NCBI GenBank assembly: GCA_039621445.1
Contig: CP154954.1
Span: forward strand, 26,238,954 to 26,302,953
Direction: 5' to 3'
From: Euglena gracilis
Lineage: Eukaryota
Length of the DNA: 64,000 nt
In this document: in pieces, positions 29,066 to 64,000 of the stretch
Position numbering within the stretch: the first letter of the stretch is position 1
Layout of the letters: every line of letters begins with the position of its first letter
Program-made: the position numbers and the translations under genes
The notes under the pieces: generated by a model
Database searches by the model: none
Told to the model about the DNA's origin: nothing
The model's input: only the letters and a program-made list of their open reading frames with translations

Positions 29066-30082
29066 GGCCAGGGTCGGGCCGGGAGGCTGCCTGTGTGCAG
29101 CGGTGCCCGTCCCCTTGCCACCCATTCCCCCACAAAGGTGCTTGCAAACCCTTTCGATGTGCTACGAATGGCACACTCAGGACTTTCAAAAAAAACAGCA
29201 ATTGCGTGGTTGCAGAAATGCCCCTGAGCCCACCACCTGTTGAGTGTGAGATTGCCTCCCTCCCCGTTTGTCGGATGCTCTTGTTGTGGATCTATGTTTT
29301 AGCCAGGAGGACCCTGTTCTGGACATTGGGTACCTTTCTTTTTGCTGCTTCATTCAGCATGAGCCAAGAGCTTTTTGAGCAAAACGTGTCGAGAGAAAAA
29401 TGCGCCATTTTGTTTTGTTTTTTTTTTACGTTAGAGTTTGCCTTTTTAGTCAATTGCAACCATACATTGTCCGTCTCTGTTGAATGGCTATCTGAATTTT
29501 GAATTGTAGAGGGGTGCTCATGTAATGGATGCTCGTTCTGTCAGAGGGGAGTTGCTCTTCTCTTTGGACCCTGCTGTTGTAACCCCCTCCCCCCCTTTCC
29601 CAACCCTCAGTTTGAAGGATTAGGTTTGGTGGGTCAGCTGAAGGGGGGGGGGGGTTATCAGTGAGGGGGATAAATCCAGGAACTGTTGGTGAAACTCGGG
29701 TCGGGCTCCCCGAAATGACCTCAGAACCCAAAACATCAGCTTCGCATTTTTTTTGAAAAAGTGTGGTTTTTTTTTCATTGTGGGGGTGGTGGTTATGGGA
29801 ATGCTGGTGGCGGATGGTACACAGGTTTTGTCACCGCTGGGGTGGTCACCGTGAAGGCAATTGAGAAAGCGATGAAGACTCTAACCCCACTCCCAATGAA
29901 ACAAAAGCGGAGTGGAGTGGATGTGTAAGTACAATTAACACACTAAAGCAGACAGCCAATAGACTAAAGCTTCGAGTGCGAGTCTGGCAAACCGTCTTGA
30001 GAATGATTTATCAGACTCTCTGGCGACTCTGTTGCCTTTTCCTTTCCGAGTGGCGGAAAGGTGCGGTTCCGGCCCTGCCTCC

Positions 30083-30559
30083 AAGGACGGCGTCCCCGAC
30101 CAGCACCTCCACCCGCAGCCGGACGGCCACCCTAACGGCCACGACCACCGCCACCCCAACTGCAACGGCAACCTCCACCCGAACCAGGACGTCCACCCTC
30201 AGTTCCACCACCACCAGAACCAGAACGGCCACCGCCACGGCCACGGCCACCCCCACAAGGACGGGCACGTTCACCCGCAGCGCCACCATAACCTCCACGG
30301 CAACCGCCACCCCCAGCTCCACAGCAACCCCCACCAGAACGGCAACCCTCACTCGAACCAGCACGCTCACCCCGAGCTCCACCACCACCGCCACCGCAAC
30401 GGCGTCCCCCACCGCGACGGCCACCTTCACCAGAACCGGCACGTTCACCCGCAGCGCCACCATAAGTGCCACGTCAACCGCCACCCCCACCACGACGGCA
30501 ACCCCCACCCGAACCTCCACCAGCACCCCCAGTTCCACACTCACGGCCTCAGATACGGC
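30083..30559 (+). CDS. Mucin-like protein exon 3
   Basis: CCGGCCCTGcctcc|A acceptor pairs with the previous donor; Thr-rich TRTATITST repeats; ends C|GACCAGAG, phase 2. Confidence 0.85.
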
Positions 30560-31069
30560 GACCAGAGACCTTTTTAACGTTTGGACTCCCGGTTGGGCCC
30601 TACCCCTTCCTCCCCCTCTCACTGAGTACCCCAGCGATGCATGGGAAGCCCGTCAGTCCCCCCCAGATGTTGGGAGGGGGGTGTCCGGATCCCCCTCCTT
30701 GGTCTAAAATTGGAGAAAATTTTTCTTTTGCAGAAGTTTGCTTTCCCCCCACTTTTAAGCACATTTTTTGGGCGTTTTTATTTCTCATACGAGAAAAAAA
30801 TAAAAAACGAAAAATCTTCTGAAAGAAAGCCCAAGTTTTCCAGCCTCTGAGTTTGAGGTGGACCCCCAAGGGGGGTCTTTAAGCAACGCCCTGGGTGGGA
30901 GGGCTTCTGACCCCCCCCCAGTCTGTGTTAGGAGGCGGTCCGGACCCCCCCTCAGGATTTATCATACATCCCTGGACCCTACTGCCCCCCCCCAACCCCC
31001 CCTCCAGGGGGGTGGACAGATGGGTGCCAACTCCCCCTCCTTGGGTCTCAAGGATAAACCTCTGACAAC

Positions 31070-31450
31070 AACTCCTACCAGCACCACCACCAGCACCCCC
31101 AGTGCCAGCATAACAAGCTCGGACACGGCGACTCCTACACGCACCTCCACCCGCACCCGCACCGCCACCATCACGTCAACAACTACTGCCACCCCCACCG
31201 CCACCGCGACCTCCACCGGCACCTCCACCCGCACCCGCACAGCCACCATCACGTCGACGGTGACGGCCACCCCCACCACCACCGCAACCTCCACGGGCAC
31301 GCGCACCCGCAGCGCCACCATCACGTCCACGACCACCGCCACCGCCAGCCCCACCGCGACCACCAGCATCACGAGCTCCTCCACGGCCACCCCGACCCCG
31401 ACCCGGACGTTCACCCGGAGCAGCTCCATCACCTCCACCACCTCCATGAC
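31070..31450 (+). CDS. Mucin-like protein exon 4 (3' end +/- 3 nt)
   Basis: CTCTGacaac|A acceptor, in frame; Thr-rich repeats; followed by CTGCTCACCTT, which pairs with AAGGTGGGTTGCAG at 37281-37294. Confidence 0.75.
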
Positions 31451-32894
31451 CGCTGCTCACCTTGACTGGCGGAATTCTCCCAGCAATCAGATATCTCGGG
31501 TGATACCCCTGACGTCACGCATTCCTCATAAGAGGTGCGAATTTCATTGATCAGATAGTGAGCCATTGTTGGAGGCTGCGAGTTATTGCGAAGATGGGGA
31601 TTTGGCATTTTTTTTATCCCTCTCAAACAACCCCCAAAAGCTAACCTTCCACTTTTACGACACCCAAATAATTCACTTGTGCCAAAAAAAAATTGGGTGA
31701 AACTCAGGATTTTTGGCATTCACTTCTCAGAAGATACCATATTTTTTGCCAAAAATGTTGGTTCAATGAAAGTGAATCAGTAGCGATGGGAGCCAAAATA
31801 CCAATTATGTAATATTTTTTGTAAGTAAAGAGTGCATGTTAGCGGGCATTTTGAGCTTGAAAACTTATCCAAGCAACACCCTTCTAAACTTCTGAGCCAG
31901 CAGGATTCTTAAGGCCCTCCCGGGGGGGGGGGGGCTTTAGACTCTCCAGTGGGGGAAGCGTATGGCAGCACCCGGGTCTGGCTTTCCAACTTTTCGGTCC
32001 TGTGGCCCCACAGAACTGCGCCGGATCCGGGCTAATTTTGTTGAATTCCGTTAGGATTGGAACTTATTTTTAGGAATAGGGTTAGGGTTAGGATTGGCGC
32101 GCCGAGAATGGCCGCATTTCGGACAGGAGTTAGGTCGCAAGTTAGGTCCCTGTTTCGGAAGACTCTTATGGTGCGCTCTTGTCAGGATTTTCCAAAATTC
32201 GGCCTACGTTCGGCTCCAAAGCGCATTGCCCCCCCTCCGCAAATGCTTTGCTTGATGGCATTTTTTTTGGGGGGTTGAGCCTAATAAAACACAGCCACCC
32301 GGAGACGTCATGGGATAAACCAACTGTCGCACGTGGGAGTGACTGTTTTTTTGTCCTTGCAAGAGCAAGCAAAGGTTCCCTCCAGTTTTCTTCGTTATTT
32401 TTTGGATGAGAAAATTGCTGACCCTGCTTTTGCTCTTTTGGGCACCAGCGCAGACCAGCTCAAAAGCCAAAACGTGCTGCATTTTCAAATTTTTTTTGTC
32501 TTGCGCCGCACGAGGGGTGCCTGTGGGCGCTTCCCCGGAGGGGGGTTATATTCGATTGCAAATTGGGGGGGTGTGCCTAATCCCAATCGGTAAACATGTT
32601 ACATTTCATTTTTGCACTTTATTTTTTGTCAGTTGTGGCTGCAAATTATCTGAACAGTTCTTTGTCAGCATCAGCAGCCAATCCATACAGTAAAAAGGGG
32701 CGTTGCATGGGATAACGTTGCAGCGAATGGGCATTTCAACAGAAGGTAAAGTGTTGATGGTGCAACATACATTCTTCATCTTCATGCTGGTATTCTTCAG
32801 GAAGGTCGGAATCATTCTTCCTTGGAGCCCAGAACATGGCAATATGCCTTGTGTGCAAGAGCAAAACAGCAGGGAAGCAACAGAGGAACACACC

Positions 32895-33638
32895 ACATAC
32901 CCACCTACGTTTTTACCTCCCTACTCACCCACCCACCTGCCTGCCTACCTGCCTGTCTACCTTCCTGTTTGCCAACCTGCTTGCCTGCCCACCTACCTAC
33001 CTACCTACCTACCTACCTACCTACCTGCCTACCTACCTACCTACCTATTTCCCTACCTACCTACCTACCTACCTACCTACCTACCTACCTACCTACCTAC
33101 CTACCTACCTACCTACCTACCTACCTACCTACCTACCTACCTACCTACCTACCTACCTACCTACCTACCTACCTGCCTACTTACTTACCTTCCTACCTAC
33201 CTGCCTACCTACCTGCCTGCCTGCCTGCCTGCCTACCTGCCTGCCTGTCTACCTACCTACCTACCTGCCTACCTACCTGCCTGCCTGCCTGCCCACCTAC
33301 CTACATTTTTACCTCCCTGACCTACCTACCTACCTGCCTGCCTACCTACCTCCCTCCCTCCCTCCCTCCCTCCCTCCCTCCCTACCTCCCTGCGTACCTA
33401 CCTACCTACCTACCTACCTACCTACCTACCTACCTACCTACCTACCTACCTACCTACCTACCTACCTACCTACCTACCTACCTACCTACCTACCTACCTA
33501 CCTACCTACCTACCTACCTACCTACCTACCTACCTGCCTACTTACTTACCTTCCTACCTACCTGCCTACCTACCTGCCTGCCTGCCTGCCTGCCCACCTA
33601 CCTACATTTTTACCTCCCTGACCTACCTACCTACCTGG

Positions 33639-33680
<42 letters not shown>

Positions 33681-33717
33681 ACCTGCCTGCCTGTCTACCT
33701 ACCTACCTACCTACCTA

Positions 33718-33757
<40 letters not shown>

Positions 33758-33990
33758 CCCACCTACCTACATTTTTACCTCCCTGACCTACCTACCTACC
33801 TGCCTGCCTACCTACCTACCTATCTCCCTCTCTCCCTCCCTCCCCACCTCCCTACCTCCCTGCCTACCTACCTACCTACCTACCCACCTACCTACCTACC
33901 TACCTACCTACCTACCTACCTACCTACCTACCTACCTACCTACCTACCTACCTGCCTGCCTGCCTACCTACCTACCTACCTACCTACCTA
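32895..33990. repeat. (CCTA)n/(CCTG)n compound microsatellite
   Basis: Direct reading; includes a higher-order repeat marked by CATTTTTACCTCCCTGA at about 33304, 33605, 33770. Confidence 0.95.
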
Positions 33991-36163: not shown

Positions 36164-36454
36164 GGCAGGTGGGAACTTCGAGACCCCCCCCCCCCCCGGG
36201 GGGGGTCTCGAACTTCACCCCGCGATGGACACCCGTTAATTGAAGGTATAGGGTTAGGTGCGCACATGCTGATTTGCGCTAATTGGCTACGTTGCGCTAA
36301 TCGGCTGTGTTGCGCAACACAGCCAATTAGCGCAACGTAGCCAATTAGCACAAATTAGCATGTGCACACCTAACCCTATACCTTCCATTAAGGGGGGTGT
36401 CCATCGCGGGGTGAAGTTCGAGACCCCGCCGGGGGTGGTCTCGAAGTTCCCACC

Positions 36455-36458
<4 letters not shown>
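36164..36458. mobile_element. Near-perfect 295-bp palindromic (foldback) element in (TA)n
   Basis: GGCAGGTGGGAACTTCGAGACC ... GGTCTCGAAGTTCCCACCTGCC; centre TGTTGCGCAACA at 36313/36314; TA repeats on both sides. Confidence 0.85.
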
Positions 36459-37658: not shown

Positions 37659-37870
37659 GACATGGGCCCTATTCATTATCACCTGATTTTTCTCTGATGG
37701 TTTGAGACGATTCAGTTGCTGGCCACCTCTTCTGGCAAGCTCCGACCAGCAGCAGAATATGTGGGGTTTTTTCTGGTGTAGCGTGCGACCCTGCAAGGTG
37801 CAGGTTGAGAATGACCCACCCACAATTTCCCCTTCCATCTGGGCAAACCATTGAATGGGCTCCAGCTCTC

Positions 37871-38077: not shown

Positions 38078-38982
38078 ACCCTGGCATGTGGAGAATTTTT
38101 TTGTTTTGAGGTTTTTTGTTTTTTAAGGTTATGTTTTGGTTTTCGCAAGGACCACCCCTCCCCCCAGGGGCCACCTCTCCACAGCTGGGGTAAAAAACGA
38201 TTTGGTTGCAAGAACGCCTGGAAGTTTAAAATCTCAAAATTCAAAAGGGAACAGCAAGGGCAAAAGAGAATTGATTGCAGGCTGCCGCTCGTTCTGCAGA
38301 GATTGCCGCTCTTGTTCCCAGCGTTGCTTGGACTCAAGGGATCAAAAGGAGAGGTTGGAATCCCTGTGAAAGCCCCACCTATTCAGATTTTTCTGAGGAA
38401 CAGCATTTGACAAGTTGAATATGCCCTGGCATGTTTTTTGGTGGGGGTCCAGAGAGGGAAAGATCACCATCCTGTGCAAGCCCTGCGGTCTGCATTATCC
38501 CTCAGGATGTCGAGTAGTTTTTGAGATCGAGAATTGACCCAAAAAAGATGCACTCGGCCTGGTCCCCTCTTTCTTTGGTTCTTCAGACTTTTTTTTTGTG
38601 CAATGGGTGCCTCTCTTTTTGTTATTCCCACCCAATTTTTGATTTTTGTGATTTTCCATGTCTCTGGTGATCTCGGTGATTCTTTTTCATTTGACTCAAA
38701 GGGAGGGCTATTATTTAGGCTGTCAAGGTCGGTCCTCAGGGGCTTCATTATTTGTTGGGGGGGTTCCACCTGGGAAGAGAGGCAAAGCATGTGTTCTTAA
38801 AGCGCGGGTAGTATCATGCAGTTCACCCCCATTCTTTCATATCATTTCCCATCAACCCACATGTCTTCACCACCGCTGGGTCCAGGCCAGGTGTGTGGCC
38901 CCCCCTGCGCCGTGGGGCCTCAAAAAGAAGCCTGATAGCGACCCCCGGGGCACAGCGGCACCAGACTCCTGCGCCAGGCCCC

Positions 38983-39136: not shown

Positions 39137-39272
39137 GCCCAGGGCAATGCTGTGTGCGTTTCTGCATGTGTCTGTATGATCGCGCCGGTGCATACGTGTG
39201 TGTGAATGAGTGAATGGTGAATGTGCATGCAAGTGTTCACTCACTCACTCATACAAGTGTACATGCATGCAA

Positions 39273-39410
39273 GTGAGTGAGTGAGTGAGTGAGTGAGTGA
39301 GTGAGTGAGTGAGTGAGTGAGTGAGTGAGTGAGTGAGTGAGTGAGTGAGTGAGTGAGTGAGTGAGTGAGTGAGTGAGTGAGTGAGTGAGTGAGTGATGAG
39401 TGATTGAGTA
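39273..39410. repeat. (GAGT)n microsatellite
   Basis: Direct reading. Confidence 0.95.
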
Positions 39411-39890
39411 TGTGTGTGTGTGTGCACTTTTTTTTTTTAAAGGAAGGACCTCCCCAAAGGGGTGCTATGAGCAGGCAGGACTCTTGGGGTCCCCGCAGCA
39501 GGGAAACAATGGACCTGCGAGCCCATGCTGGGTGCAGCAGGTGGGGTCATGAGTATGCTGTGTGGCCATTACCCCTCTGTGTGTTGGGTTCCTGCCTCGG
39601 AAACTGTCAGGGTCCCCGGTACTCGCCAACCTGTCATTAGAGAGAGTTATTAGGGTCCTGGTATTGTACTTGTCAGGTGGCAGTTTTCTGGGGCAATGTA
39701 TTTATTTCCAAAATGCACGTTTTTTTGCAGAAATTGTGTGTTTTTTGCAGTCCTTTTTGGTGCTAGACCAAGTAAAACAGACATACTCAAACTTGGTGAA
39801 ATTAGGTAAATCAGAAGCGCAACTCTCCTGGAATCCTGGAACTCAATGGCCATTTTTCATTGAAACAAAGTTCCTGGAATGGGTTGCTGG

Positions 39891-40283
39891 CAGGGTTCGA
39901 TATAAGGAGGGCGTACATGGTTTAGGTGGGGGGTGTCCCCCCACCCCCCCCCCCCCCTCCTGGCCCGCAGGGGGGGTCTGGACCACCCCCCCCCCACCTG
40001 CAAGGGGGGTCCGGACAGACCCTCGGGGGGTACCCGGGACCCCCCCCAAAAAGGGTCAATTTTTTCCTCCGGTGCTTCGCGCCGAAAATTTTTGCATTTT
40101 TGGCCAATTTTTTTGCCCAAAAAGTGCCCAAAATGGCACTTTTGGTCGATTTGGGGGGCCGAAAATCGGTCACCCTGATCGCGCCACTGTTTAGGTGGGG
40201 GGGTGTCCCCCACCCCCCCCCCTCCTGGCCCGCAGGGGGGGGGGGTCCGGACCCCCCCCCTCCTCTCCTTATATCGAACCCTG
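39891..40283. mobile_element. hAT-like MITE family A, intact
   Basis: TIR CAGGGTTCGATATAAGG / CCTTATATCGAACCCTG; 8-bp TSD GTTGCTGG at 39883-39890 and 40284-40291. Confidence 0.9.
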
Positions 40284-41022
40284 GTTGCTGGGTCATGGGG
40301 AGGGGGGGTCAGATTTGCATCCTGAACAGGTGCGACCCTGCAAATTCGTCTTAAAGGTGGTTATCTTTTTTTTGGCCAGGTGTCTCGGCAAAGGGTCGCA
40401 TATTGCTTTTCATCACAAAGGAAAATTGTACGAAAAATCTTCATCCCAATAAAATGACTGACTTCCCATCGTTCTCATGAGCCATTTTTGCATGGGGGGT
40501 CAGAGGAGGGGTTTTCCCTGGAGGTGGGTTTCGCTCTTACCTATCAAAGGATTAGAGCTCATCGACCCCCCCCCCCAGGGATTGTGGTGGGCACCGCACA
40601 GCAGAAGGTATCATCCCACTTCCCCCTGTGTTCTTAAAGCAAGCCTGCATCACATCACATCAACATCCACAGGCATCAACAAGTTTCACATTGAGTCCGT
40701 CAGCTTTGAGCCCTAAGGACAATTGGAGAAAAATGTAACGCCACAGGCAATTTGTTCAGACAGTAGCCTTGCACATGAACGGCACTCAGACGTTATGTCC
40801 CACCTGTTTAAGACCCCCCAAGGAGCCAAAACCTTGGGGAGGGGGTTCTTCTTCGGGATCAGAATGGGGCGGTGTCACGACCACTCCTGTCTGTGCGTCC
40901 GACCTTGCTCCATGCCCTTCGAGGTTCTGCAGTGGCGCGAATAGGTCCAGACCCAGTTCTGGGCATGCTGCACCCGCAAAAGCGCCGTGTGGCGTGGTAT
41001 TTGCTGCTTTGCCCCTGCACCC

Positions 41023-41103: not shown

Positions 41104-42620
41104 GTTTTAGGCGGCGCAGAGGGCCAGCCACGCGAGCGCACACTGCCTCAACACCCTTTTTTTTGCGGCCAACGTTTCTTCCCACTCGAAACAGATACAC
41201 CTTGCCCCCAATTTCAATTTAAGATATGATAATGTATATTTGCTCATGAGTACCCCAACGTTCCCCAACTTTGCATTTGTTTCATTGGCATCTTTTCCTT
41301 CCACTGGTTTGGATACCTCTATGCCGGGGAAATTGTCTGGCCTCTGGTACTATTTGAGTAGTCAAAACAATCAAGGTCCCCGCCTCCAGCCAACTTGTTC
41401 GATGGAAACGGATAGTTTGCCACCGTCCAATTTGCAGGATTGCTGCCCGCCCTCCCTCCCTCCCCGTCCATGACACCTACCCGCGTGAACGGCACAATCC
41501 CAGAACATAGACATCAAGAGCGTGTGATATTAGATTCATTCATTTAACGCTTTGTGTGACCCTTCCCATGGGAGGTTGAGTTTTCAAGAGTGGGTGGGTG
41601 GGTTGGAAGCCCCCCTCCCCAGGCTTTGGGGGACCCCATGGATCAGTCCAGCACGGCCGGTTGATTTTAGATGGGTGTTGGGTGGGCAGGCGGTCGATTT
41701 CCCTGGGGGAAGGGGGGGGGCAGGGTTCAACGAAGGGCAGGTGGGACCAGCGGACCTTCTTTTTCAGGCGCGAAGAGCCGGGCTGGAAAAGTTTCCCCCA
41801 ATCGGCCCAAATGTCATTCTTGGCACTTTTTTTGGGCGAAAATTTGTCCGAAGTACAAAAAATATTGGACTGAAGTTTAGGAAGTAAAAAATTTAATTTT
41901 TGGGGGGTCCCCCTCGAACAACCTCGAACAGCATTCGAGGAGGCTATCGAGCCTCCTCCAACGACCTCGAACGGCGTTTCAAGAGACTCCAGAGCCTCTT
42001 CCTATTTTTTTTGCATTTTTTATTTCCCCCCCAAACGTTTTTTGGATTTTTCCATGAAAATATTTTTGACTCTGGATAATTTCTCGTTTTGGCCTCGATT
42101 TTCCCCTGAGACCAAAATTTTTGGCATTTTTTAGTCATTGTTGCATTTTTTGGTCAACAAAATGCTTTTTTTTATGGAAGATGGAAAATTTTCCCCGTCG
42201 GAGCTAAAAATTTTTCTAAGTCCTCTCCAATGGAAAGATGTGCATCTCGGACCTCAAGGTTTTCCCTTGCAATTTGCGTCTTTTTGTGTTTTTTTGCGTG
42301 TTTTTTTGAGCAACCGCAAACCTATCCGATCTGCCTTTCCTGGCTCTCGACTGAGTGATCAACCCCCCAAAAATTGTTCTGGCGTTTAATTCATTTCGCC
42401 CCCCTCCCCCTACCCCCCCCCCCCTCGTGCAGTTGTCACCTTGGAGTGCATACTGACTGACGTGGCGTAATGGCTTTAGATACGTGGTACATTACAACTG
42501 GAAAGTTGTCATGTACGCCCGTACTCGCTGAGTTGTCAGGTCAATGTCACGAGGGGGGGGGCAGAGATGTTTCTCACATTTGTTCATATTGCCGGCCGCC
42601 CTCCCCACCGCCTAAATCTC

Positions 42621-42815
42621 GCCACGCCCTCCGCCACGACCACGCACACACCCTCCGCCACGCCGTCCAGCACCCCCACCGGCACGCCGTCCGCGACGGC
42701 CACCAGCACACCGTCCGCCACACCAACCGGAACACCCACCGCGACGCCGTCGGCCACCCCTTCGGGCACGCCATCCGCGACTCCCACTGCCACCTCCACG
42801 GCCACGCCCTCTGCT
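42621..42815 (+). CDS. Mucin-like protein exon 9
   Basis: CCGCCTAAatctc|G; TPSA/TPTG repeats; ends T|ACCCAGGGCTGAGC. Confidence 0.8.
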
Positions 42816-43015
42816 ACCCAGGGCTGAGCCGTGTGTGACGGTGAGCGCCAGTTAATTTTTTCCCCTCCAAAAATGGCCCACAAGAAAGTGGCGCCTCAAT
42901 CCTCCTGAAGGAAGGAAGGACTGAGGGTGAATCTGCATTGAAATTGCCGCTGCTGCCCCTCATGTTTTCTGCCTCTGCCTTTTTTTTTGCTCACCTTGTG
43001 GTTTTCCATCTCGGC

Positions 43016-43317
43016 CAGGGGTTTTTTTAATTTTTAATTGTGGACCCTCAGGGGGGAGGGGGTAGGGTGGATGGGTCCGGCCGAGCCCCCCCCCCCCCCC
43101 CGGGGTGTCCCCCCCAGGGGCTGGTGAGTTATACTTTTGGGCGTCGAAGGCACCAAATTTTTTGAAAAGGTTCTATTTTGGCACTTTTCGAGATTTTTGG
43201 GCCATTTTCAGGGAAAATGGAGTGGGTCCCCTGGGACCCCCCGGGGGTGGGCCCAGGGGGTGGGTGGGTGGGGGGGGGGACCCCCGGTCTTAAAAAAAAA
43301 TTAGGGCCGACACCCTA
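43016..43317. mobile_element. hAT-like MITE family C
   Basis: CAGGGGTTTTTTTAA ... CCCTA; 8-bp TSD ATCTCGGC at 43008-43015 and 43318-43325. Confidence 0.75.
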
Positions 43318-49114: not shown

Positions 49115-49483
49115 ACCCCAACTGGGACGCCATCCGCCACGCCGTCTGCTACGCCCACCGGCACACCGTCCGCCACACCGTCCGGCACCCCCACCACCAC
49201 CCCATCCGCCACAGCGACGTCTACGCCCTCCGCCACACCCTCGGGCACGCCCACGGCCACGCCTTCCGGCACGCCCACCGACACACCGTCTGCCACACCG
49301 TCCGGCACCCCCACCGGTACCCCCTCGGCGACCCCCTCCGGCACCCCCACTGGCACGCCGTCGGCGACACCCACGGGCACGCCCTCGGCAACTCCCACTG
49401 GCACGCCCACCACCACACCGTCGGCGACGCCCACCGGAACCCCAACTGCCACGCCAAGTGGGACCCCGACTGCCACACCATCT
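49115..49483 (+). CDS. Mucin-like protein exon 13
   Basis: GCTCCGCCCCTGccccc|A; ends T|GTTTCGGGCGCTGCAAA. Confidence 0.8.
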
Positions 49484-51763: not shown

Positions 51764-51982
51764 GGCACGCCCACCGACACACCGTCCGCCACACCGTCCG
51801 GCACCCCCACCGGTACCCCCTCGGCGACCCCCTCCGGCACCCCCACCGGCACGCCGTCGGCGACACCAACGGGCACGCCCTCAGCAACTCCCACTGGCAC
51901 GCCCACCACCACACCCTCGGCGACGCCCACCGGAACCCCAACTGCCACGCCATCAGGCACGCCCACAGCCACCCCTTCAGCC
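51764..51982 (+). CDS. Mucin-like protein exon 14
   Basis: TTTGCAGCACCCAAattcc|G; ends C|GCCCAGGACGGAGC. Confidence 0.8.
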
Positions 51983-52226
51983 GCCCAGGACGGAGCCCCA
52001 TCGATGTGCGCTGTATTTTTTTTTGATTCCCAAAATCCTCTGTCCCGTCAAGTCTGTCCCGTCAAAGCCCAAACAGTAGCGGCCAGGGGTTCTGGTTCTG
52101 GCAGGGGTTCAGATCCCCCTGCTGAGCGCATTCACCTGCCCCATGTCAACAGCACATTCCAGTTGGAGGTTTTTCCCCGTCGAAGTGCTGTGACGAGAAC
52201 TATTTTGACACGTTCTCTGTGCCAAC

Positions 52227-52633
52227 CAGGCTTCTGCTTAAGTACTCCCCCGGGGGGGCTGGACTGCAGCTAGTCCAAATTTGGCTAGTGGGATTTCTAG
52301 CAGACCCCCCCCCCTAGCAAGTGAATTTTTTTTTCCAGTCTGCCAGTGACTGGCGCAAAGCGCCGGATTTTTTTGGGGGGGACCCCCAAAATGGCCAAAA
52401 AATGCCCGTTTTTTGGCCATTTTTGGGAATTTTTGGAACAAAATCAGCCAAAAACCTATTAAAAGCCTCATTTCCACCTCGGCGCACAGCGCAGGAGGAA
52501 ATTTTATTTCCAGTTGGGGGACCCCGGACCCCCCCCTCCCCCAGGGGGGAGGGGGGTCTAGCTAGTCCACTTTTTCTAGCTAGTCCAAATTTCCAGCCAG
52601 TGGACCCCCCCCGGGTCCTTGAGCAAAAGCCTG
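52227..52633. mobile_element. hAT-like MITE family B, intact
   Basis: TIR CAGGCTTCTGCTTAAG / CTTGAGCAAAAGCCTG; 8-bp TSD GTGCCAAC at 52219-52226 and 52634-52641. Confidence 0.9.
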
Positions 52634-52979
52634 GTGCCAACGGTGCAGCCTTGAAGCAAGGGGGTAAAGCCACAGTGCACAAGGCGCTGCATCCTAACCC
52701 CGAAGGAGTCCACTCCTAAAAAATACCATACCCCCCCTTGCTTCGGCTGCCCGAATGCTGTACCCCTCCATCAACTTAAAATCAAGTGCACAAAGCACAG
52801 AAATTATGTTTAAATGTACGTTTTGGGGGAGGGGTGTATTTTCGAGTGTGAAAAATATGCCCAAGTAATATTCCCCTCCAGCCCCTGACATCGGATACCC
52901 AAATAGTATTCCCAGGTATTTATTTATTTATATTTTGCTTGGGGTTTTGTTTCCAATCCCGCGCTCTGCTTCTGCCCCC

Positions 52980-53195
52980 ACCCCAACTGGCACGCCCACC
53001 GGCACACCGTCTGGCACCCCCACCAGCACCCCCTCGGCGACACCCTCCGGCACTCCCACTGCCACGCCGTCGGCAACACCAACCGGCACCCCCTCCGCAA
53101 CGCCATCCAACACGCCCACTAGCACACCTTCCGCAACACCCACTGGCACCCCATCCACCACCCCATCCGGGACACCCACGGATACCCCTTCGGCT
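52980..53195 (+). CDS. Mucin-like protein exon 15
   Basis: GCTCTGCTTCTGccccc|A; ends T|GCCCAGAAAGGAGCC. Confidence 0.8.
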
Positions 53196-54387
53196 GCCCA
53201 GAAAGGAGCCGGTGTTTAGGGGGGGTCCACTTCAGGGGGGGGGGGGTTCTATCCATATTGGTATTTCGTGGTTCGGGGGTTCTATCTATATTGGTATATA
53301 ATGGTATTTCGTTAAAAAAAACGATATTTTCACCCCCTCTTAGGGTCATATGAAATTTTTTCTGTTTCTGTGGCGTATGAATGTGGAAGAAATTGTTCTT
53401 TGAAGAGGTCACAATCTCATGCACCCCCCCCACTGGTAATGGTTTACCAAGAAATAGGTTTTGGTTGGGGGATGGGGGAGCCGTTGACCAGTTATATGAC
53501 AGTTTCGGGGGGGGGGCTAAATATGCAGACCTCGGTGGTTGTTTTCTTTTACAAAGGGTTTCTCGCAGATTTCAGTGTCTCAGCGTTTCGGTCTCTCATG
53601 GATCGCACCCTGCAGCCAGCTGACGACTTAGCCTGAATGCACACCTGTGGTCCCGGCCGCAGGTCACACCACTCCAGTGCAACCATACAGACCCCCCCCC
53701 CCAAGAGTGCGTCAGAGGCGGCCAAATTTTTTTCAGATTTGGTGAATTTTTCGAACATATTCCATATTCCATTTGCTCTGATTTGGAATCGGTAGAAATT
53801 TACTCCAGCAAAGCTTCAAAATCTATGATAAATAATATCTCATACAAGTTCACACAGAACCCTCCCCCGAGGGTTTTGGAATCATAAACAAGAAAGTGTT
53901 GAAGGTAAAGTACACAGAACTTTTAGAGTAGGCAGTGCTAACCTCATAACAATTTAGCAGACTGGAACAGCGGGAGCACTGGAAGTTGATCAGTGGGAGA
54001 AGAAAAAATGATAGATGGTCGAGCACATGCAGTTCACCAAATATTTCAAATAAATGAAGAAAATCCTGGGAGCCTAATGGGAGGGACCTGGGAAAAGGGA
54101 TCTGGGAGCAGGATGAGAGGTTGGACCTGAAGGGTACCCAAAGAAGAACTCGCCAGTTACCCGTTCGCTACCCCCCCCCTCCCCTAAAGCAATCCCAAAA
54201 TGGTAATTTTCCCCCTGGCCTTGAACTCCAGTTCGAGCGCTGAAATGGGTCGAGAAATTCTACCCAAGCAACAACAGAAGGAAAATAGCGCACCCCGTGC
54301 ATTTCCACTGGATTCACATACTTTGTGGATTTTTTCCCCGCCAACACCAGCAAACATGTCAGCCGTTATGGCTCTGCTTCTGCCTCC

Positions 54388-54759
54388 ACCCCAACTGGCA
54401 CGCCCTCCGCCACACCGTCCGCGACGCCAACCGGCACACCCTCCGCCACGCCGTCCGGCACCCCCACCACCACCCCATCCGCCACCCCAACCGCCACTCC
54501 AACCGCCACCCCTTCCGGCACGCCCACCACCACCCCATCCGCCACGCCCACCGGCACGCCTTCCGCCACACCGTCCGCCACGCCCACCGCCACACCGTCC
54601 GTGACGCCCTCCGGCACACCAACAACGACGCCCTCGGCCACTCCGACAGGCACGCCCTCCGCGACGCCGTCTGGCACCCCCACCAGCACACCGTCGGCGA
54701 CGCCCACCGGCACACCGTCCGCCACGCCAAGTGGGACCCCAACTGCCACCCCTTCAGCT
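54388..54759 (+). CDS. Mucin-like protein exon 16
   Basis: GGCTCTGCTTCTGcctcc|A; 372 nt; ends T|GCCCAGGACGGAGC. Confidence 0.8.
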
Positions 54760-55202
54760 GCCCAGGACGGAGCCCTATTGCTGTGTCGTATCCTCCCCCG
54801 CTCGGCGGATTGATATCCGCAAATTTCCCACAATTTCTGCAATTTTCCGCAATTTGCGCGATTTTCCGCAATTTCCCTGCAATTTCCACAAATTTTCTGC
54901 AATTTTCCCGCATTTTCCCCCCTTTCTGCAGTTTTCTTTGCATGAACCTGAAATGCAAAGGTAAAATGAGTTCCGGTCACTTCTCGAGCGTTTCATAAGG
55001 GCATCCAGGTGCTTTTTTTGCTTACCTCCCTCAAATAATACCCCCCCGGGTATTATTTTTTTTCGCCCGAAGTCCCGGCCCGAGGGGGTATTATTTGGGG
55101 GGTAATGGCACCCCAGAATTTTCCAAATCTTTGAAGCCCCGCAGGACCCAAAATAGTACCCAAAACCCCCTTTGGGGTCTTTTTTTTTCTTCTTCACTTT
55201 TT

Positions 55203-56373
55203 CATGAAATTTGGCATTTTTGGCGGCCAGACGATCCAGAAAAATAAATTTTTTCGTAATTTGTTGTCAGAGATTGTGATTCTTGGGTCGTTGGCCCGAA
55301 ATTGGGGGGGGTATTAATTCGGTCCCCGAAATCGGACCCCGAGGGGGGGGGTTGGGGGGGGTGCTATTGGGGGGAGTGTTTATTTTGCTGCATGCTTGCC
55401 AAAATTTGCCAAATTTTGCAAATTTTGAACAAATTTTGGCAAATTTTTGGCCTGTTTGTAGTTTTCCCCGAGTTCTGCTGGGAAATAATTTCGGACTGAG
55501 AAAATTTTAAATCCTGACCATATTCTACCTGATAACAAAGTTCTTGTCATTTTTTTTGCCATTTTTGGATGCTTCATCCAAGGAATTCCATATTTCCAGA
55601 ATCAGCATGTTCCCAAAATTACAAAAATTCATTTTCTTTTTTTCTTTTTGTTGGAATGAATGTGAATAACGGCTCAAAATTTACATCTATGTTGCAAAAT
55701 GGCCAAATTTGTGCAATTTTTTGAAGTCCCTTCCAGAGGAAGTGTGCCAACCCCCAAACCTGCAACTCCCGCAGTTTTTGCACAATTTTCCCACAGTTCT
55801 TCCGAAGACCTTTCATATCAATTCCCTCCCTGCTCCCTGCCAATTCCTCCGTTGGGGAAATCACTGAACTTATTTCCCTTGGTTTTAAACCTGCTTTTTT
55901 CCCTTTGGGCAGATGGCAAGTTGAATAATCATTTTGGTTGTTTGGTGGGCCGACCAGTCAGGCTTTGGGAAACCCCCAAACATAAGCGGCACCCTTAAAC
56001 TACCCTCCTCCCCCCTCTATGTCCAACAACCCCCCAATGTCGAACGACCCCCCCCCGGTTGAAGGACACTTTCTTCGGAGGTTTGGCCTGGTGCTGAGCG
56101 CCGGGCCGAAAAATTTTGTACCCAAAATCGGCCAAAAATCGGCCAAATGCCAATTTTTGTACTTTTTTTTGAGCAAAACAATATCAAATTGCCCAAATTT
56201 TTGGCGCAAAGCACAGGGCGTAAAGAAAAGATTGACCTTATTTGGGTCCCGGGAGCCCTCCAACCTTTTTTTTAGACCCTTTTAGACCCCCCAAATGCAA
56301 CTCAACCCACACGGTGTGTTTCGTTTCTTCGCTGTTTATATTTAGTATTATATGGTATATATAGTATTGTGTG

Positions 56374-56420
<47 letters not shown>

Positions 56421-59400
56421 TATTCACACACACATATTCACAGGCCGTATGTTTGGGATGTGTATTCCCTGGGGACGATTGTATCATTTCTTACCCTCCC
56501 TGCAGTTCCTTTCAAGTCACACCACCTTAAGAGCTCTGACTTAGGCGGCGCGAATTGCCCAAATTTTTTGCGATTTTTTGCACGCTTGGGGTGCGCGGGT
56601 TTCCGTTTACGAAACTCACTGTTATGTGCTCGAAATTTTGAGAGGATGGCACCAGCACAAAAATTTGGGTCGTTTTGAGTCCATTTTAGGCATTTTGACA
56701 AAGTGGCGATTTTGAGAATTTATGGTCGTTTTAGGGGGGGTTTTGGAAAACCCCCCTGGAACGCCCTGAAATTTTGAAAAACAGAAAACAGCCGGAGAAC
56801 ACCTGGCCACTGGAGCCCCGGTTGTTTGGCGATGTTGCTGGACCCCCCCCCCTCTGGAGGGGGGGTGACACAGTGTGGCAGGTGAAGAAGAGGCAACCGC
56901 TTAAGCAACCCGCGCATTTTTGAACCTCTCGTGAGTGCCGATGTCCAGTGACGGGGGAGGTGAACACACAGCACTGCCCAACAGATGCTACAATTTCTTG
57001 GAAGAGATGTTTTAAGCGGTAAATCGCGCAAAATGAGTTTTTGTGATGAAGAGATGCTGGCCTAACGGAGGGGACTGGACTGGGAATAACGTTAAAAACG
57101 AGTTACAACGGTTTACTGTGTACAGAAGTGATGATTCCTCAGGCGGAAACCCGCGCAGAAGGGTTTGAGAAAGAGAACAGTTCGTGTTTGTGGATGACAC
57201 GAGGGAGCGGGAAGTGGGAACGCGCAGAAACCTCCAGAAGTGGGTCATCACGTGAAGTTGTTAATGAACAGGTTTGGGGGAGCGGGAGGGGATTTTGGGT
57301 CGTTATTGAACGATGGCAGTGCGCGGTTATCCGCCTACTTCGTTTTTAGTTTGCGCGGGTTTCCGCACAGATGAGGTTTGGGCGGAAACCCGCGTGGAGC
57401 TTGTTGCTGTCCTGATGGGTTGTGTTTTGTGATGTTTTGGTGTCCCAAAGTGTCGGTGTCAGTGGTGACGTGTGGCGACATCGTTTTTGACAGTTGGGCG
57501 GGACAGGTTGAAAGGGAGCTGTGGCTGCTGCGCCGTGACAGCAAGCAACCGAGCAGGCGGAAACCCGCCTGGCATTTGAGCAGGAGGTGGACACCCTCCT
57601 CTGCAATTCGGACGCAGTAATGTTCCCCCTGGCCAGTGGTGAAGGGGTGGCTGCAGGGACAGCAGTGGAACGCACGTGTCAGTTGCCAGGCCGGGTGAGC
57701 TGCGGTAGAGAAGATGTTTTGTTACCGTCCCGAAAAACGGCCAAAAAACTGAGGTTGATTTCTCAGGAGGAACAAAAGCACCTCCCAGAGCCCTCCTCCT
57801 GGAACCCAACGGTCTTGGTGGCCCAAAATCAGGGTTTGGGGAAGGCTGACGAAGAAGTGATTCAAGATATGGACGGAGAAACTCCTGTTTCAGCAGTTGG
57901 TGGCAGCAGTCGAACAATTTCGGGGGGTTTTCGGAAGAAGTCCTCCAGGTTCTGAGAAAATCAAGGCCTTTTCAATTGTTTTTTGAAACAGTGTTACAGC
58001 ATTTTTCCTTTGAAAAGCCGCAGTTTTTGCTGAATTTCAGGCAAAATGCCCAAACCACCTCTTTTTTTCTGGCTCTTCTTCCTTTGGGGTCGGCAACATG
58101 CCTCCGGAGGAGGGAACGGTGGTCTCCACCGTCAGAAGCCGTGTGGGAGGGGGATAAACCAGAAGGCGGTCGTTCTCAACCAACGCCGGGTCAATGTTTG
58201 ACCCGGTGCATCTGGCTTCCATCCATGTAACCACCCTCAGCACAAGTGTGTCCGGTCTTTCTGGAGACCACCCCTGCTCTGAGTGCCCAAGTTTAAGGGC
58301 TGGCCGTCTCTCCTCGGTTGGTCAACCCCTGCTGGCGCAATCTCCTCTCCCTGGTTTCCGTAAACCTCCACCCCTCAAACTCACTACAACACGCCAGACA
58401 CCATTCAGTTACAAACTGCCTGGCGACCTGGCAACAAAGTCTGTCGTCCGTGTCCTCCGCAAAGATTCACGCCTGTGACTGGTGTCACAAGTAGGGTTGC
58501 AAAACTTTGCCAACAAACCAGCACAGTTTATTTCTAGGGTGGTTTCCATCTTCCACCCCCATCCCATCGTCCACAAATGCTTTGCTTTTTCTGCTCACCC
58601 TTAACCCGGCCACACGGATTCCCGCTTACACCCAGTCGCCTTACACTCACCACGTATACACACATACCAGGCGGATTCCCTCCCACCAGTCATCAACTGT
58701 TTGTGTTATTGTACGCGGTAATCCGCCATGCTTTGTTCTCACTTTTAGGCGGTAATCCGCGTTACAAGTTCAATCTACGCGGATATCCGCCTAACATTTA
58801 ACTCCGTCGTCTGACACCTCTTCTTTCGTTTTACGCGGTTATCCGCACACACTTGCAATGTTCATTCGTCTCTCAAATACTGTTATTAACGTAAACCATG
58901 GACACACAGCCCCATGTCACACCCATTCAAAGTTGGTGTTTTTCCAGCCATTTCAAACCGTTCTAGTACACTCCCAAATCACACAACTCACACACAATCG
59001 GAAATCGGCTAAGCGGAATACCGCGCAAAACCACTTCTGTTAAATTTTGGCCCAAAGCCGCCACACACCCCTCTCAGCTCAAATCTTTTTGCCCTTTTAG
59101 GTGTTTTTAAAACAGCCAAAAAAAACGCATGAAATTTGGCATTTTTGGCGGCCAGACGATCCAGAAAAATATTTTTTTTCGTAATTTGTTGTCAGAGATT
59201 GTGATTCTTGGGTCGTTGGCCCGAAATTGGGGGGGGGGGTATTAATTCGGTCCCCGAAATCGGACCCCGAGGGGGGGTTGGGGGGGGGGTGCTATTGGGG
59301 GGAGTGTTTATTTTGTTGCATGCTTGCCAAAATTTGCCAAATTTTGCAAATTTTGAACAAATTTTGGCAAATTTTTGGCCTGTTTGTAGTGTTTTCCCCG

Positions 59401-60441
59401 AGTTCTGCTGGGAAATAATTTCGGACTGAGAAAATTTTTCATCCTGACCATAGTCTACCTGATAACAAAGTTTTTGTCATTTTTTTTTGCCATTTTTGGA
59501 TGCTTCATCCAAGGAATTCCATATTTCCAGAATCAGCATGTTCCCAAAATTACAAAAACTCATTTTCTTGGACCTTTTTGTTGGAAAGAATGTGAATAAC
59601 GGCTCAAAATTTACATCTATGTTGCAAAATGGCCAAATTTGTGCAATTGTTTGAAGTCCCTTCCAGAGGAAGTGTGCCAACCCCCAAACCTGCAACTCCC
59701 GCAGTTTTTGCACAATTTTCCCACAGTTCTTCCGAAGACCTTTCATATCAATTCCCTCCCTGCTCCCTGCCAATTCCTCCGTTGGGGAAATCACTCAACT
59801 TACTTCCCTTGGTTTTAAGCCTGCCTTTTTCCCTTCGGGCAGATGGCAAGTTGAATAATCATTTTGGTTGTTTGGTGGGCCGACCAGTCAGGCTTTGGGA
59901 AACCCCCAAACATAAGCGGCACCCTTAAACTACCCTCCTCCCCCCTCTATGTCCAACAACCCCCCAATGTCGAACGCCCCCCCCCCCCCCGGTTGAAGGA
60001 CACTTTCTTCGGAGGTTTGGCCTGGTGCTGAGCGCCGGGCCGAAAATTTTTGTACCCAAAATCGGCCAAAAATCGGCCAGATGCCAATTTTTGTACTTTT
60101 TTTTGAGCAAAACAATATCAAATTGCCCAAATTTTTGGCGCAAAGCACAGGGCATAAAGAAAAGATTGACCTTATTTGGGTCCCGGGTGCCCTCCAACCT
60201 TTTTTTTTTTTAGACCTTTTTAGACCCCCCACATGCAACTCAACCCACGGTGTGTTTCGTTTCTTCGCTGTTTATATTTAGTATTATATGTTATATATAG
60301 TATTGTATGTTATATATATATATATTCACACACACATATTCACAGGCCGTATGTTTGGGATGTGTATTCCCTGGGGACGATTGTATCATTTCTTACCCTC
60401 CCTGCAGTTCTTTTCAAGTCACACCACCTTAAGAGCTCTGA
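55203..60441. repeat. About 1.33-kb direct repeats (55203-56539 and 59128-60441) flanking a 2.6-kb unique segment
   Basis: Both copies start CATGAAATTTGGCATTTTTGGCGGCCAG and end CACCTTAAGAGCTCTGA; a third copy starts at 63121. Confidence 0.85.
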
Positions 60442-60899
60442 GCGCTGGGGGTGGCAGATGGCCAAAAGGACATTTGTGTAGGGAATTTGGAGAGCGGAAG
60501 ATTCTGCCACTTTTTTTTGTGTGCCTTGGAACCTTGGGGTAACAAGGGGGAACATTCCCATCCCATGAAACTCTGGGGATTCAGAAAAGAAAGGATTGGA
60601 ACTCATTTACACAATTTTCTTTGCGGAATTGCACCAGTGCACCAGTCATCTCGGCGTTCATACATCTTCGTCATTCTTGTGAGTCGATTTTTCGCTTCTC
60701 AGAAATACACTGCATAATCGGGTGACAACGTTCACGTTTTATTCTTTTATAACTTATTGCACATCCTGCATCCATCCATCAAATAAAAGAGTATTGTTTG
60801 CTCACTGCTAAAAAAGAGTTATGGCAACGCCTTCGTCGAACACCTGATTTACATGTCTGACCAACAACACAAAGGTCTGCATGAAAGCTGACCCCAAAC

Positions 60900-61160
60900 C
60901 AGGGATTTTTTTAAGTTTGGACCCCCGGGGGGGGATGGGTCCGCCGGACCCCCTCCCCCCGGGGGGGGGTCCCCCCAGAGGGGGGTGGGATATACTTTTC
61001 GGCGCCGCAGGCGCTGAAAAAATTCTATTTTTAGCACTTTTCGCGATTTTCGGCCATTTTTTTGTGGGTCCCCCTCCCCCCCTCCCCCCCGGGGGGGGCC
61101 TCCCCAGGGGGTGGGTGGGTGGGGGGACCCCCCTCCCCCCCGGTCTTAAAAAAATCCCTG
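60900..61160. mobile_element. hAT-like MITE family C, intact
   Basis: TIR CAGGGATTTTTTTAAG / CTTAAAAAAATCCCTG; 8-bp TSD CCCCAAAC at 60892-60899 and 61161-61168. Confidence 0.9.
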
Positions 61161-62284
61161 CCCCAAACACACAATTTCTGTTGCCATAGTTTAAGGCCTT
61201 TTTTTTGTGTTTCAAAATGCTTGTGTTCAACGTTTTCCCAGAGTGAGCCTGAAGGGAACCTGGCAGTTTCCCATCTGGGAAATTGTCAAGGTCCCTGGTA
61301 CCAGTCAATCTGTCACAGCAGGAAGTTGTCAGGATTTCCGGTGCCATGCATCACTTTAGCCGGAGGACATCCCATCCCCCACCAGGGAGGGGGGGGCTTT
61401 TTCCAGCGTCGAACCGCCCTCCCCCCATTGACGAGTTTTAGCTATTTTCCAGCTGCCAATTTTTTATTTTATTTTTGGGGTGTGGTCAATGGGATAAAAA
61501 TGGGGAGGAGATGGGTCGGAAATGGGCGGGCTAGGATAATTTTCGGTCAAACAATCGACTTCTTGCATAATTGGCAGTTTTTTGGGGGCATTTTTTGCAG
61601 TTTCGATTTTTGGCACCCATGTCGTCGTCCCCGGTTCGGGGCTTGTTTCAGCCCTGTGGGGGGGTGGGTCAGCCAGCAGCCTTTTTTTCCCAACCAGCCC
61701 ATATGTTCCAGCCTCTCAGCTGGACCCCCTGGATGGTTTAGCGACGCCCTGTTCTGGTGTCGTACCAACCTCTCAGCTGACAGCTTCCGGGGGGGGGGGT
61801 GAAATTTGGTTTGCCTTTGTCCCCAGGAGGGGGGGGTTCTTGACCAGATTCCAAGTGGGTGTATTCGTGGGACAGGGCTGCCCCATGAGGTGCCTTCTGG
61901 CCTAGGATAGACCCGCCCACAAGTTCCTTCCCGACTGAGGGGACTCGTCCACTGACTTGGGAACCGCACCTGCTGGGGTCATGGACTGGAGTAACCAGTG
62001 CGTCGTCACGGTGAAGAAGACCCCCCACCCAACTAAAGCGGGGTATGTGCCTGGCAGCCACTTGGTGGACAGCGTCGTAAACGAAGTCAGTCCCGCCAGG
62101 CTCTGGCCACCTCCACGCACACAGACAAAAAGGGCCAGAGGCGAAAAGCAGCGCCAGGCCAGAATAAGAGATAAAAGGCGTCAAACCAAAAGCCGCAGTG
62201 CAGACAAGGGGGGAGATGTTCCTTTGGAGGACATTCTTATCTCAGCTTCCTTTCATCATCTTTTGGAACCCATTTCCATTCAGA

Positions 62285-64000
62285 GCTCTGCTTCTGCCCC
62301 CACCCCAACCGGAACGCCGTCCGCCACACCGTCCGCGACGCCAACCGGCACACCCTCCGCCACGCCGTCCGGCACCCCCACCACCACCCCATCCGCCACC
62401 CCAACCGCCACTCCAACCGCCACCCCTTCCGGCACGCCCACCACCACCCCATCCGCCACGCCCACCGGCACGCCTTCCGCCACGCCGTCCGCCACGCCCA
62501 CCGCCACACCGTCCGTAACGCCCTCCGGCACACCAACAACGACGCCCTCGGCCACTCCGACAGGCACGCCCTCCGCGACGCCGTCTGGCACCCCCACCAG
62601 CACACCGTCGGCGACGCCCACCGGCACACCGTCTGCCACGCCGAGTGGGACCCCAACTGCCACCCCTTCAGCTGCCCAGGACGGAGCCCTATTGCTGTGT
62701 CGTATCCTCCCCCGCTCGGCGGATTGATATCCGCAAATTTCCCACAATTTCTGCAATTTTCCGCAATTTGCGCGATTTTCCGCAATTTCCCCGCAATTTC
62801 CACAAATTTTCTGCAATTTCCCCGCATTTTCCCCCCTTTCTGCAGTTTTCTTTGCATGAACCTGAAATGCAAAGGTAAAATGAGTTCTGGCCACTTCTTG
62901 AGCGTTTCATAAGGGCATCCAGGTGCTTTTTTTGCTTACCTCCCTCAAATAATACCCCCCCGGGTATTATTTTTTTTTTCGCCCGAAGTCCCGGCCCGAG
63001 GGGGGGGGTATTATTTGGGGGGTAATGGCACCCCAAAATTTTCCAAATCTTTGAAGCCCCGCAGGACCCAAAATAGTATCCAAAACCCCCTTTGGGGTCT
63101 TTTTTTTTCTTCTTCTTTTTCATGAAATTTGGCATTTTTGGCGGCCAGACGATCCATAAAAAATATTTTTTTTCGTAATTTGTTGTCAGAGATTGTGATT
63201 CTTGGGTCGTTGGCCCGAAATTGGGGGGGGGGGTATTAATTCGGTCCCCGAAATCGGACCCCGAGGGGGGGGGCTGGGGGGGTGCTATTGGGGGGAGTGT
63301 TTATTTTGTTGCATGCTTGCCAAAATTTGCCAAATTTTGCAAATTTTGAACAAATTTTGGCAAATTTTTGGCCTGTTTGTAGTGTTTTCCCCGAGTTCTG
63401 CTGGGAAATAATTTCGGACTGAGAAAATTTTAAATCCTGACCATATTCAACCTGATAACAAAGTTCTTGTCATTTTTTTTTGCCATTTTTGGATGCTTCA
63501 TCCAAGGAATTCCATATTTCCAGAATCAGCATGTTCCCAAAATTACAAAAATTCCTTTTCTTGGACCTTTTTGTTGGAAAGAATGTGAATAACGGCTCAA
63601 AATTTACATCTATGTTGCAAAATGGCCAAATTTGTGCAATTTTTTTGAAGTCCCTTCCAGAGGAAGTGTGCCAACCCCCAAACCTGCAACTCCCGCAGTT
63701 TTTCCACAATTTTCCCACAGTTCTTCCAAAGACCTTTCATATCAATTCCCTCCCTGCTCCCTGCCAATTCCTCCGTTGGGGAAATCACTCAACTTATTTC
63801 CCTTGGTTTTAAACCTGCTTTTTTCCCTTTGGGCAGATGGCAAGTTGAATAATCATTTTGGTTGTTTGGTGGGCCGACCAGTCAGGCTTTGGGAAACCCC
63901 CAAACATAAGCGGCACCCTTAAACTACCCTCCTCCCCCCTCTATGTCCAACAACCCCCCAATGTCGAACGCCCCCCCCCCCCCCCCGGTTGAAGGACACT
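62285..64000. repeat. Recent duplicate of about 54371-56070 (exon plus start of intron)
   Basis: Near identity at an offset of about 7.9 kb through the exon and at least 1.3 kb of the following intron. Confidence 0.9.
62302..62673 (+). CDS. Mucin-like protein exon 17 (near-copy of exon 16; gene continues beyond the window)
   Basis: GCTCTGCTTCTGccccc|A; 372 nt, almost identical to exon 16; same donor sequence. Confidence 0.8.

Follow-up and report, generated by a model that had tools for sequence, protein, structure and literature searches.

Miniature inverted-repeat elements with 8-bp target site duplications as a plausible source of nonconventional introns in Euglena gracilis

Where do the nonconventional introns of euglenids come from, and why are they set off by odd spacers of 3 nt and 5 nt? 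Papers of 2018, 2024, and 2025 left both points open. A 64,000-nt stretch of the Euglena gracilis genome (GenBank assembly GCA_039621445.1, contig CP154954.1, positions 26,238,954 to 26,302,953; referred to here as the window and numbered from its first letter) bears on this question. It carries predicted introns of this type together with transposable elements of the miniature inverted-repeat kind (MITEs) that begin with CAG, mostly end with CTG, and are flanked by 8-bp target site duplications (TSDs). In our view, nonconventional introns, or at any rate some of them, may plausibly derive from such MITEs, and we hold this reading to be somewhat probable.

The splicing code of these introns has been defined genetically in Euglena as 5'-N3CDG...CH'GN5-6|R (Nomura et al. 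2025, PMC12501133). According to the same study, splicing is abolished when the 5' spacer is changed by a single base, and the 3' spacer tolerates one additional base; a stem of ~12 bp adjoining CAG/CTG is required, the exon starts with a purine, and a CTG...CAG variant is permitted (PMC12501133). Because 3 + 5 = 8, cuts in this register remove an element plus exactly one copy of an 8-bp TSD. The code is thus satisfied, in either orientation, by an element that has CAG and CTG at its two ends and an 8-bp duplication around it, and removal of such an element restores the target. This arithmetic, proposed in a preliminary description of the window, is correct and agrees with the experimentally defined code (PMC12501133).

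In the mechanism that we propose, the inverted-repeat ends of a MITE (i.e., CAG and CTG) would serve as the cis-code that is read by the euglenid nonconventional-intron machinery. The machinery would read the terminal stem from CAG:CUG and make one cut 3 nt upstream of CAG and another 5 nt downstream of CTG. From a MITE inserted into an exon in either orientation, the RNA would lose the element and exactly one TSD copy, and the original mRNA would be restored. We infer that intact MITEs would be spliced in this manner and that the register would be tied to the TSD length.

The window holds genuine multicopy inserted MITEs with 8-bp TSDs. MITE A (39891-40283; 393 bp) has a terminal inverted repeat (TIR) that starts CAGGGTTCG and matches at 19/19 positions; its perfect 8-bp TSD, GTTGCTGG, is found at 39883-39890 and 40284-40291. 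MITE B (52227-52633; 407 bp) extends from CAGGCTTC to AAGCCTG, pairs at 14 of its 16 outermost TIR positions, and has the perfect 8-bp TSD GTGCCAAC, while MITE C (60900-61160; 261 bp) combines the TIR CAGGGATTTTTTTAAG (16/16) with the 8-bp TSD CCCCAAAC, identical on both sides. MITE D (43016-43317; 302 bp) runs from CAGGGG to CCCTA, with terminal pairing of only ~5 nt, and is flanked by the perfect 8-bp TSD ATCTCGGC; C and D are 71% identical across 245 aligned columns. The combination of a CAGG start and a CCTG end was observed in three of the four elements (A, B, and C). Coordinates, termini, and perfect TSDs were all as given in the preliminary description, including the CCCTA end of D. None of the four is assigned to a strand, and their sizes (261 to 407 bp) are below the 1-kb limit for MITEs and too short for a transposase of their own; no Pfam family matched the open reading frames (ORFs) overlapping them.

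Additional copies were present in the same window. MITE B' (2503-16511; likewise without strand) has mutated termini (CTGG...CCCG) but carries TTTGAGGG as its TSD on both sides. It is split by the nested MITE A' (2594-16164), whose own TSD is uninformative because A' sits in a C-run; A' is in turn split by a 13.1-kb insert (2712-15860). A truncated further copy of B lies at 20216-20405. In BLAST comparisons within the window, A and A' were 88 to 90% identical and B and B' 80 to 89%. In total, five informative perfect 8-bp TSDs were found (A, B, C, D, and B'). The 19-nt TIR of MITE A was also used in a metagenome scan, which returned only two loci, both in unrelated coding DNA (L001, 5573-5591; L002, 4084-4102); these were rejected as MITEs, the hit being a chance match upstream of an ORF in near-identical, unrelated contigs.

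We scanned the window for elements of the form CAG...CTG (60 to 2,500 bp; TIR, at least 12/14; TSD, 8/8), using dinucleotide-preserving shuffles as a control. Within the window, the scan recovered A, B, and C; the 100 shuffles yielded no element. When the TIR threshold was loosened to at least 9/14, there were three real matches versus two chance matches in 30 shuffles. Furthermore, in a contig from a DNA sequencing run (X14), position 60886 was joined to 61161 via four other letters, so that MITE C was absent and CCCCAAAC was single; this contig represents an allele or a paralogue of the site. Taken with B' as the fifth informative copy, the MITE-C-free contig identifies the MITEs as inserted elements. 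Within 42401-62400, the word depth of X14 at bins containing MITEs or other repeats exceeded that of the adjacent bins by factors of hundreds to thousands (e.g., ~108,000 to 124,000 versus 40 to 200), which suggests very high copy numbers, although depth is not itself copy number.

With their TSDs, MITEs A, B, and C fit the N3/N5 code by construction, with terminal pairing of 14 to 19 bp. In the predicted minimum-energy fold of MITE C as RNA, a 16-bp terminal stem starts from CAG:CUG, and both 8-nt TSD copies are left unpaired. B, C, D, and B' have a purine at position 6 of the TSD, which would become the first base of the downstream exon, and A has a T there.

The predicted nonconventional introns belong to a plus-strand array of Thr/Pro/Ser/Ala-rich coding blocks that spans 28.9 to 62.7 kb. 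The first three blocks constitute one gene (stop codon, 31548-31550), and the remaining blocks are paralogous exon units, some of them recent tandem duplicates. In most of the blocks, the coding sequence starts five bases 3' of CTG and breaks off a few bases 5' of CAGG. Between 29066 and 62301, we predicted 11 introns with the pattern N3-CAG...CTG-N5, of which 10 had CAG/CTG and 1 had the CTG/CAG variant; the models leave out the boundaries at 37665-37868, 41105-42612, and 49606-51762. When the cuts were placed 3 nt ahead of the 5' motif and 5 nt past the 3' motif, the Thr/Pro/Ser reading frame was kept at 11/11 junctions, a count equivalent to ~5 independent cases because the exons are paralogous. 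The first exon base at the acceptor was A in 10/11 introns and C at 46973. Terminal pairing amounted to 5 to 10 contiguous pairs without gaps and to more with a 1-nt bulge.

All of these introns are on the plus strand. The first (29066-30082) has 10 contiguous terminal pairs (CAGGGTCGGG versus CCGGCCCTG), is in frame, and has flanks matching at 3/8 positions. The variant intron (38078-38982) uses CTG...CAG and is also in frame. MITE A lies within intron 39137-41022 and MITE B within intron 51983-52979, both in frame. Intron 42816-44284 (CAGGGCTGAGC...GCTCAGCCCCTG) contains MITE D, and intron 54760-62301, which is 7.5 kb long and has its acceptor (CTG+5) at 62301, contains MITE C. An exon of the Thr/Pro/Ser array (47825-47980, plus strand) is located between introns 47193-47824 and 47981-49114.

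Mapping of reads and contigs covered 42401-62400 and used the DNA run X14, two contig runs (X15 and X16), and a raw RNA run (X21). The RNA nature of X15 and X16 was guessed, and they are therefore called RNA-like here. In the exon bin 49071-49737, the depths of X15 and X16 were 11.9 and 32.7, compared with 0.3 to 1.6 beside it, whereas X14 was flat there. Ends of RNA-like contig pieces coincided with four predicted boundaries (42815, 47825, 47978/80, and 54759). The first of these, from X16, is the donor of intron 42816-44284. The exon piece 47825-47978 is internal to two contigs (X15 and X16), and a 2-nt CC slide extends it to 47980. Position 54759 is the exact end of two RNA-like contigs (X15 and X16) and corresponds to the 5' edge of intron 54760-62301. 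The joints were dominated by those derived from repeats; among the joints listed (15 of 510) and the pieces listed (24 of ~35,700), none spans a whole intron. Exon coverage in the raw RNA run was ~0.1 to 1x (at most about 1). The N3-CAG/CTG-N5 register proposed in the preliminary description is thus supported, but not fully proven, by the 11/11 frames and by RNA-like contig ends at four of the boundaries; introns 29066-30082 and 30560-31069 are predictions from reading frame and motif.

One predicted intron has a MITE-like end. The 5' 30 nt of intron 30560-31069 (plus strand; "intron 3" of the preliminary description; CAG...CTG core, 30563-31064, 502 nt) and the 5' end of MITE C were identical at 25/30 aligned columns, and this match scored 33, a value reached in 0/500 shuffles (null maximum, 21). 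In end comparisons of 11 introns with four MITEs (176 tests), this pair ranked at the top (z = 11; next, 5.2). For the other 10 introns, comparisons with the ends of MITEs A to D gave z values of at most 5.2, plausibly owing to G/C-run composition.

The flanks of the same intron, ACGGCGAC and ACAACAAC, differ at three positions, all of them G>A. An uninterrupted paralogue is found in the coding repeat of the next exon (31109-31156), where GGACACGGCGAC is followed directly by TCCTAC. The left plus right flanks agreed with this paralogue at 36/48 positions when 8 nt were removed and at no more than 32 positions for the 12 other lengths (range, 0 to 12). The predicted splice yields GC|A, which still encodes Ala, and the resulting peptide, DTATPT, is the one encoded by the paralogue. 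The intron, a composite of 502 nt, contains internal repeats, and its present terminal stem has only 5 bp. On sequence grounds, its 5' end appears related to MITE C, and the empty-site-like paralogue favours an 8-bp TSD.

Which superfamily these MITEs belong to is a separate matter. The hallmarks of hAT elements are an 8-bp TSD and the terminal motif YARNG (PMC3014272), and the 8-bp TSD is also described as a hAT feature elsewhere (PMC7385995). MITEs A, C, and D start with CAGGG, and the 3' end of D reads TAGGG on the reverse strand; these termini resemble those of hAT MITEs, as do the 8-bp TSDs, the TIRs of 16 to 19 bp, and the lack of coding capacity. Unlike hAT MITEs, MITE B starts with CAGGC and breaks YARNG, the interiors are rich in G-runs and C-runs rather than in AT, and there is no hAT transposase in the window. 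A search of 40 large ORFs of the window against Pfam gave sub-threshold, low-complexity matches only, with no transposase or other Pfam domain. The preliminary label "hAT-type" draws on TSD length and the YARNG motif, which A, C, and D fit and B does not. We lean slightly toward hAT as the better guess.

The outline of the mechanism could be right even if the elements were Merlin or an undescribed group with 8-bp TSDs. Two Merlin families with 8-bp TSDs have been reported in E. gracilis itself; Merlin elements in general have TSDs of 8 to 9 bp and TIRs in which a terminal GG is conserved (PMC8101967). Although the genus and the TSD length are shared, the terminal GG is absent from A to D, which start with CAGG, and the Merlin domain DDE_Tnp_IS1595 was not found in the window. 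A further element at 36164-36458, a near-perfect palindrome with a long TIR starting GGCAGGTGGGAAC, is inserted in an (AT)n tract, on account of which its TSD is uninformative; its terminal GG recalls Merlin and is a point for a superfamily other than hAT, as are the CAGGC start of MITE B and the lack of a transposase. Given the CAGGG and TAGGG termini, we regard a non-hAT assignment as possible but rather doubtful. The superfamily is immaterial to the arithmetic, because any element with an 8-bp TSD and a TIR starting with CAG fits it.

A more fundamental alternative is coincidence. In this case, the MITEs would be mere passengers in long introns, and N3/N5 would reflect the geometry of the excision enzyme, not the TSD; the introns would have arisen by double-strand-break repair with short direct repeats, by duplication of intron-exon units, or by conversion from conventional introns. 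Several observations agree with it and weigh against a MITE origin. The four intact MITEs are all enclosed by longer predicted introns and none is itself an intron, and clear MITE end homology was observed in only 1/11 predicted introns. None of the joints listed (15 of 510) takes out a MITE together with a single TSD. In the array, the intron-exon units are evidently duplicated and have ends in common (such as CAGG(G/A)C.GAGCC and GCTC.GCCCCTG), which indicates that the array introns were multiplied by segmental duplication. Some of the elements themselves do not conform to the code: with the TSD of MITE A, the first exon base would be a pyrimidine, and D falls outside the code because its 3' CTG is absent (CTA). 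The palindrome at 36164-36458 starts with GGCAGG, and since its CAG lies two bases inside the terminus, N3/N5 cuts would leave 4 additional nt and would not restore the target seamlessly. CAG and CTG are, moreover, motifs of just 3 nt. TSD lengths across TIR superfamilies span ~2 to 11, so that the match of 8 with 8 could itself be a coincidence.

The flanks of the introns were likewise of limited help. Over the 11 introns, flank identity averaged 4.36/8, compared with 3.82 for mismatched pairs (permutation P = 0.038, with non-independent introns). This echo is marginal and carries little weight because it is weak and because most of the introns are paralogous copies of one another. The TSD-like echoes singled out in the preliminary description, 6/8 in its "intron 6" (38078-38982; GCCACACC and GCCCCAGC) and 5/8 in intron 30560-31069, are literally true but not unusual, given that 17% and 31% of 110 mismatched flank pairs reach 6/8 and 5/8, respectively. 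Its proposal that such MITEs would be seamless introns on arrival is partly and indirectly supported by the arithmetic, the termini, and one MITE-C-like intron end; the intact MITEs occur only inside longer predicted introns.

Published data can be read in both directions. In Euglena agilis, a recently gained gapC intron that is present in one strain only has eight-nucleotide direct repeats at its junctions, which its discoverers attributed to double-strand-break repair (Milanowski et al. 2016, PMC4770533), and direct repeats flank 84.4% of the introns of this species (PMC12501133). Both junctions of nonconventional introns carry the same Y|R consensus (PMC6221363), which, we infer, is what a duplicated target would give. 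If coincidence were the explanation, the stem initiated by CAG:CUG, the 8 nt of slack, and the eight-nucleotide repeat of the youngest known intron would all be due to chance. Break repair leaves the inverted-repeat termini unexplained, and the relationship of intron 30560-31069 to MITE C, together with a paralogue that fits an 8-bp duplication best, also argues against coincidence. We therefore regard coincidence as unlikely. The reverse direction, in which the MITEs would be former nonconventional introns made mobile (e.g., via circular RNA), could draw on the release of these introns as full-length circles (PMC11282704, PMC12501133) and on MITEs being transcribed or in transcribed DNA (MITE bins have high depth in the RNA-like runs), but precise TIRs, a TSD length fixed at 8 bp, and nesting within nongenic repeats (A' in B') are hallmarks of cut-and-paste transposition, and one would not expect constant 8-bp duplications from an RNA route, making this direction very improbable indeed.

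A stronger version of the MITE origin would hold that the 3-nt/5-nt register is tuned to the 8-bp TSD of one superfamily, such that every exonic insertion of such a MITE, whichever its orientation, would be erased from the mRNA as soon as it arrived. We offer this only tentatively and think it rather unlikely. If true, it would explain the ~72% share of nonconventional introns among Euglena introns and the fact that most nonconventional introns are "slidable," as well as the shared Y|R consensus and the 8-nt repeat in the youngest known intron. The excision machinery would then be a candidate derivative or partner of a transposon system.

The window contains several other features. The three-exon gene at 28920-31550 codes for a mucin-like protein that is rich in Thr and has a short unique C terminus. 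A protein search with its last exon (31065-31547) gave no match at E ≤ 1e-10 among 8,000 word-sharing candidates (lengths, 88 to 282 aa), and the unique C-terminal 50 residues had no candidate among proteins of 88 to 282 aa. An Rfam search of the window found nothing. A (TACC)n microsatellite of ~268 copies (32914-33990) lies between this first Thr-rich gene and the exon array, and an (AGTG)n array is located at 39272-39396. One exon unit has undergone a recent tandem duplication (54225-55450 versus 62200-63370), and a 1.3-kb noncoding unit is likewise recently duplicated in tandem (55200-56540, 59140-60440, and 63120-64000), with repeated GCGCGGGTTTCCG / CGGAAACCCGCGC motifs in the 2.6 kb between two of its copies (56540-59125). 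The 13.1-kb insert in A' (2712-15860) has a 12-bp direct repeat (CCCACCTGCAAG) on its flanks, lacks TIRs, and has an AAATCC-like 3' end; within it, 107 copies of a 35-bp minisatellite (8536-12245) are open in three frames, and there is no Pfam match. The insert is possibly a non-long-terminal-repeat retroelement or a composite. Other TIR or repeat families occur at 45838-46072, 44520-45060, and 55020-55100 (e.g., CCCCCCCTAATAGAAGC...GCTTCTATTAGGGGGGG and GGGTTTCTTATATTTGG arrays); given their different termini, not every MITE-like element in the window starts with CAG.

Compared with what is known of euglenid nonconventional introns, the framework is largely in print. A MITE origin was proposed in general terms in 2014, when transposable elements were not known from euglenids (Milanowski et al. 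2014, PMC3935182), and a 2024 review marks CAG/CTG as the TIR and calls the repeats at the junctions TSD-like (PMC11282704, Fig. 3D legend), although the terms "hAT," "8 bp," and "8-bp" are absent from it. The positions of CAG (+4 to +6) and CTG (−8 to −6), the terminal stem, the junction direct repeats, and the proposed MITE-like origin are all shared with the elements described here. The difference is that no transposon family, TSD length, or hAT assignment is named in the portions of that literature that were available, whereas the window provides concrete CAG...CTG MITE families with 8-bp TSDs and makes the 3 + 5 = 8 link explicit. These two items appear to be new, as neither the 8-bp/hAT arithmetic nor Euglena MITE families were found in the literature, supplements and subscription journals aside. 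Concrete families turn the general idea of a MITE-like origin into specific, cheap tests.

Two systems outside the euglenids invite comparison. The noncanonical introners of the dinoflagellate lineage Amoebophrya (PMC7789003) have inverted repeats of 8 to 20 nt, a hairpin that joins the exon ends, boundary-overlapping direct repeats, and a suggested MITE-like origin; their direct repeats, however, are 3 to 5 nt long, and their splice positions vary relative to the hairpin. In the introners of Micromonas and Aureococcus (Huff et al. 2016, via PMC11282704), a TIR/TSD transposon becomes an intron when it inserts; one intron boundary falls within the TSD, and splicing removes the element plus one TSD. 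These introners use spliceosomal GT/GC-AG sites and short TSDs (3 nt in the example given; PMC11282704), whereas the removal proposed here would be nonspliceosomal and measured from a stem, and each of the two cuts would fall within a copy of the 8-bp TSD. If this proposal is true, euglenid nonconventional introns would represent, beside the spliceosomal introners, a second and mechanistically distinct case of seamless transposon introns on a genome scale.

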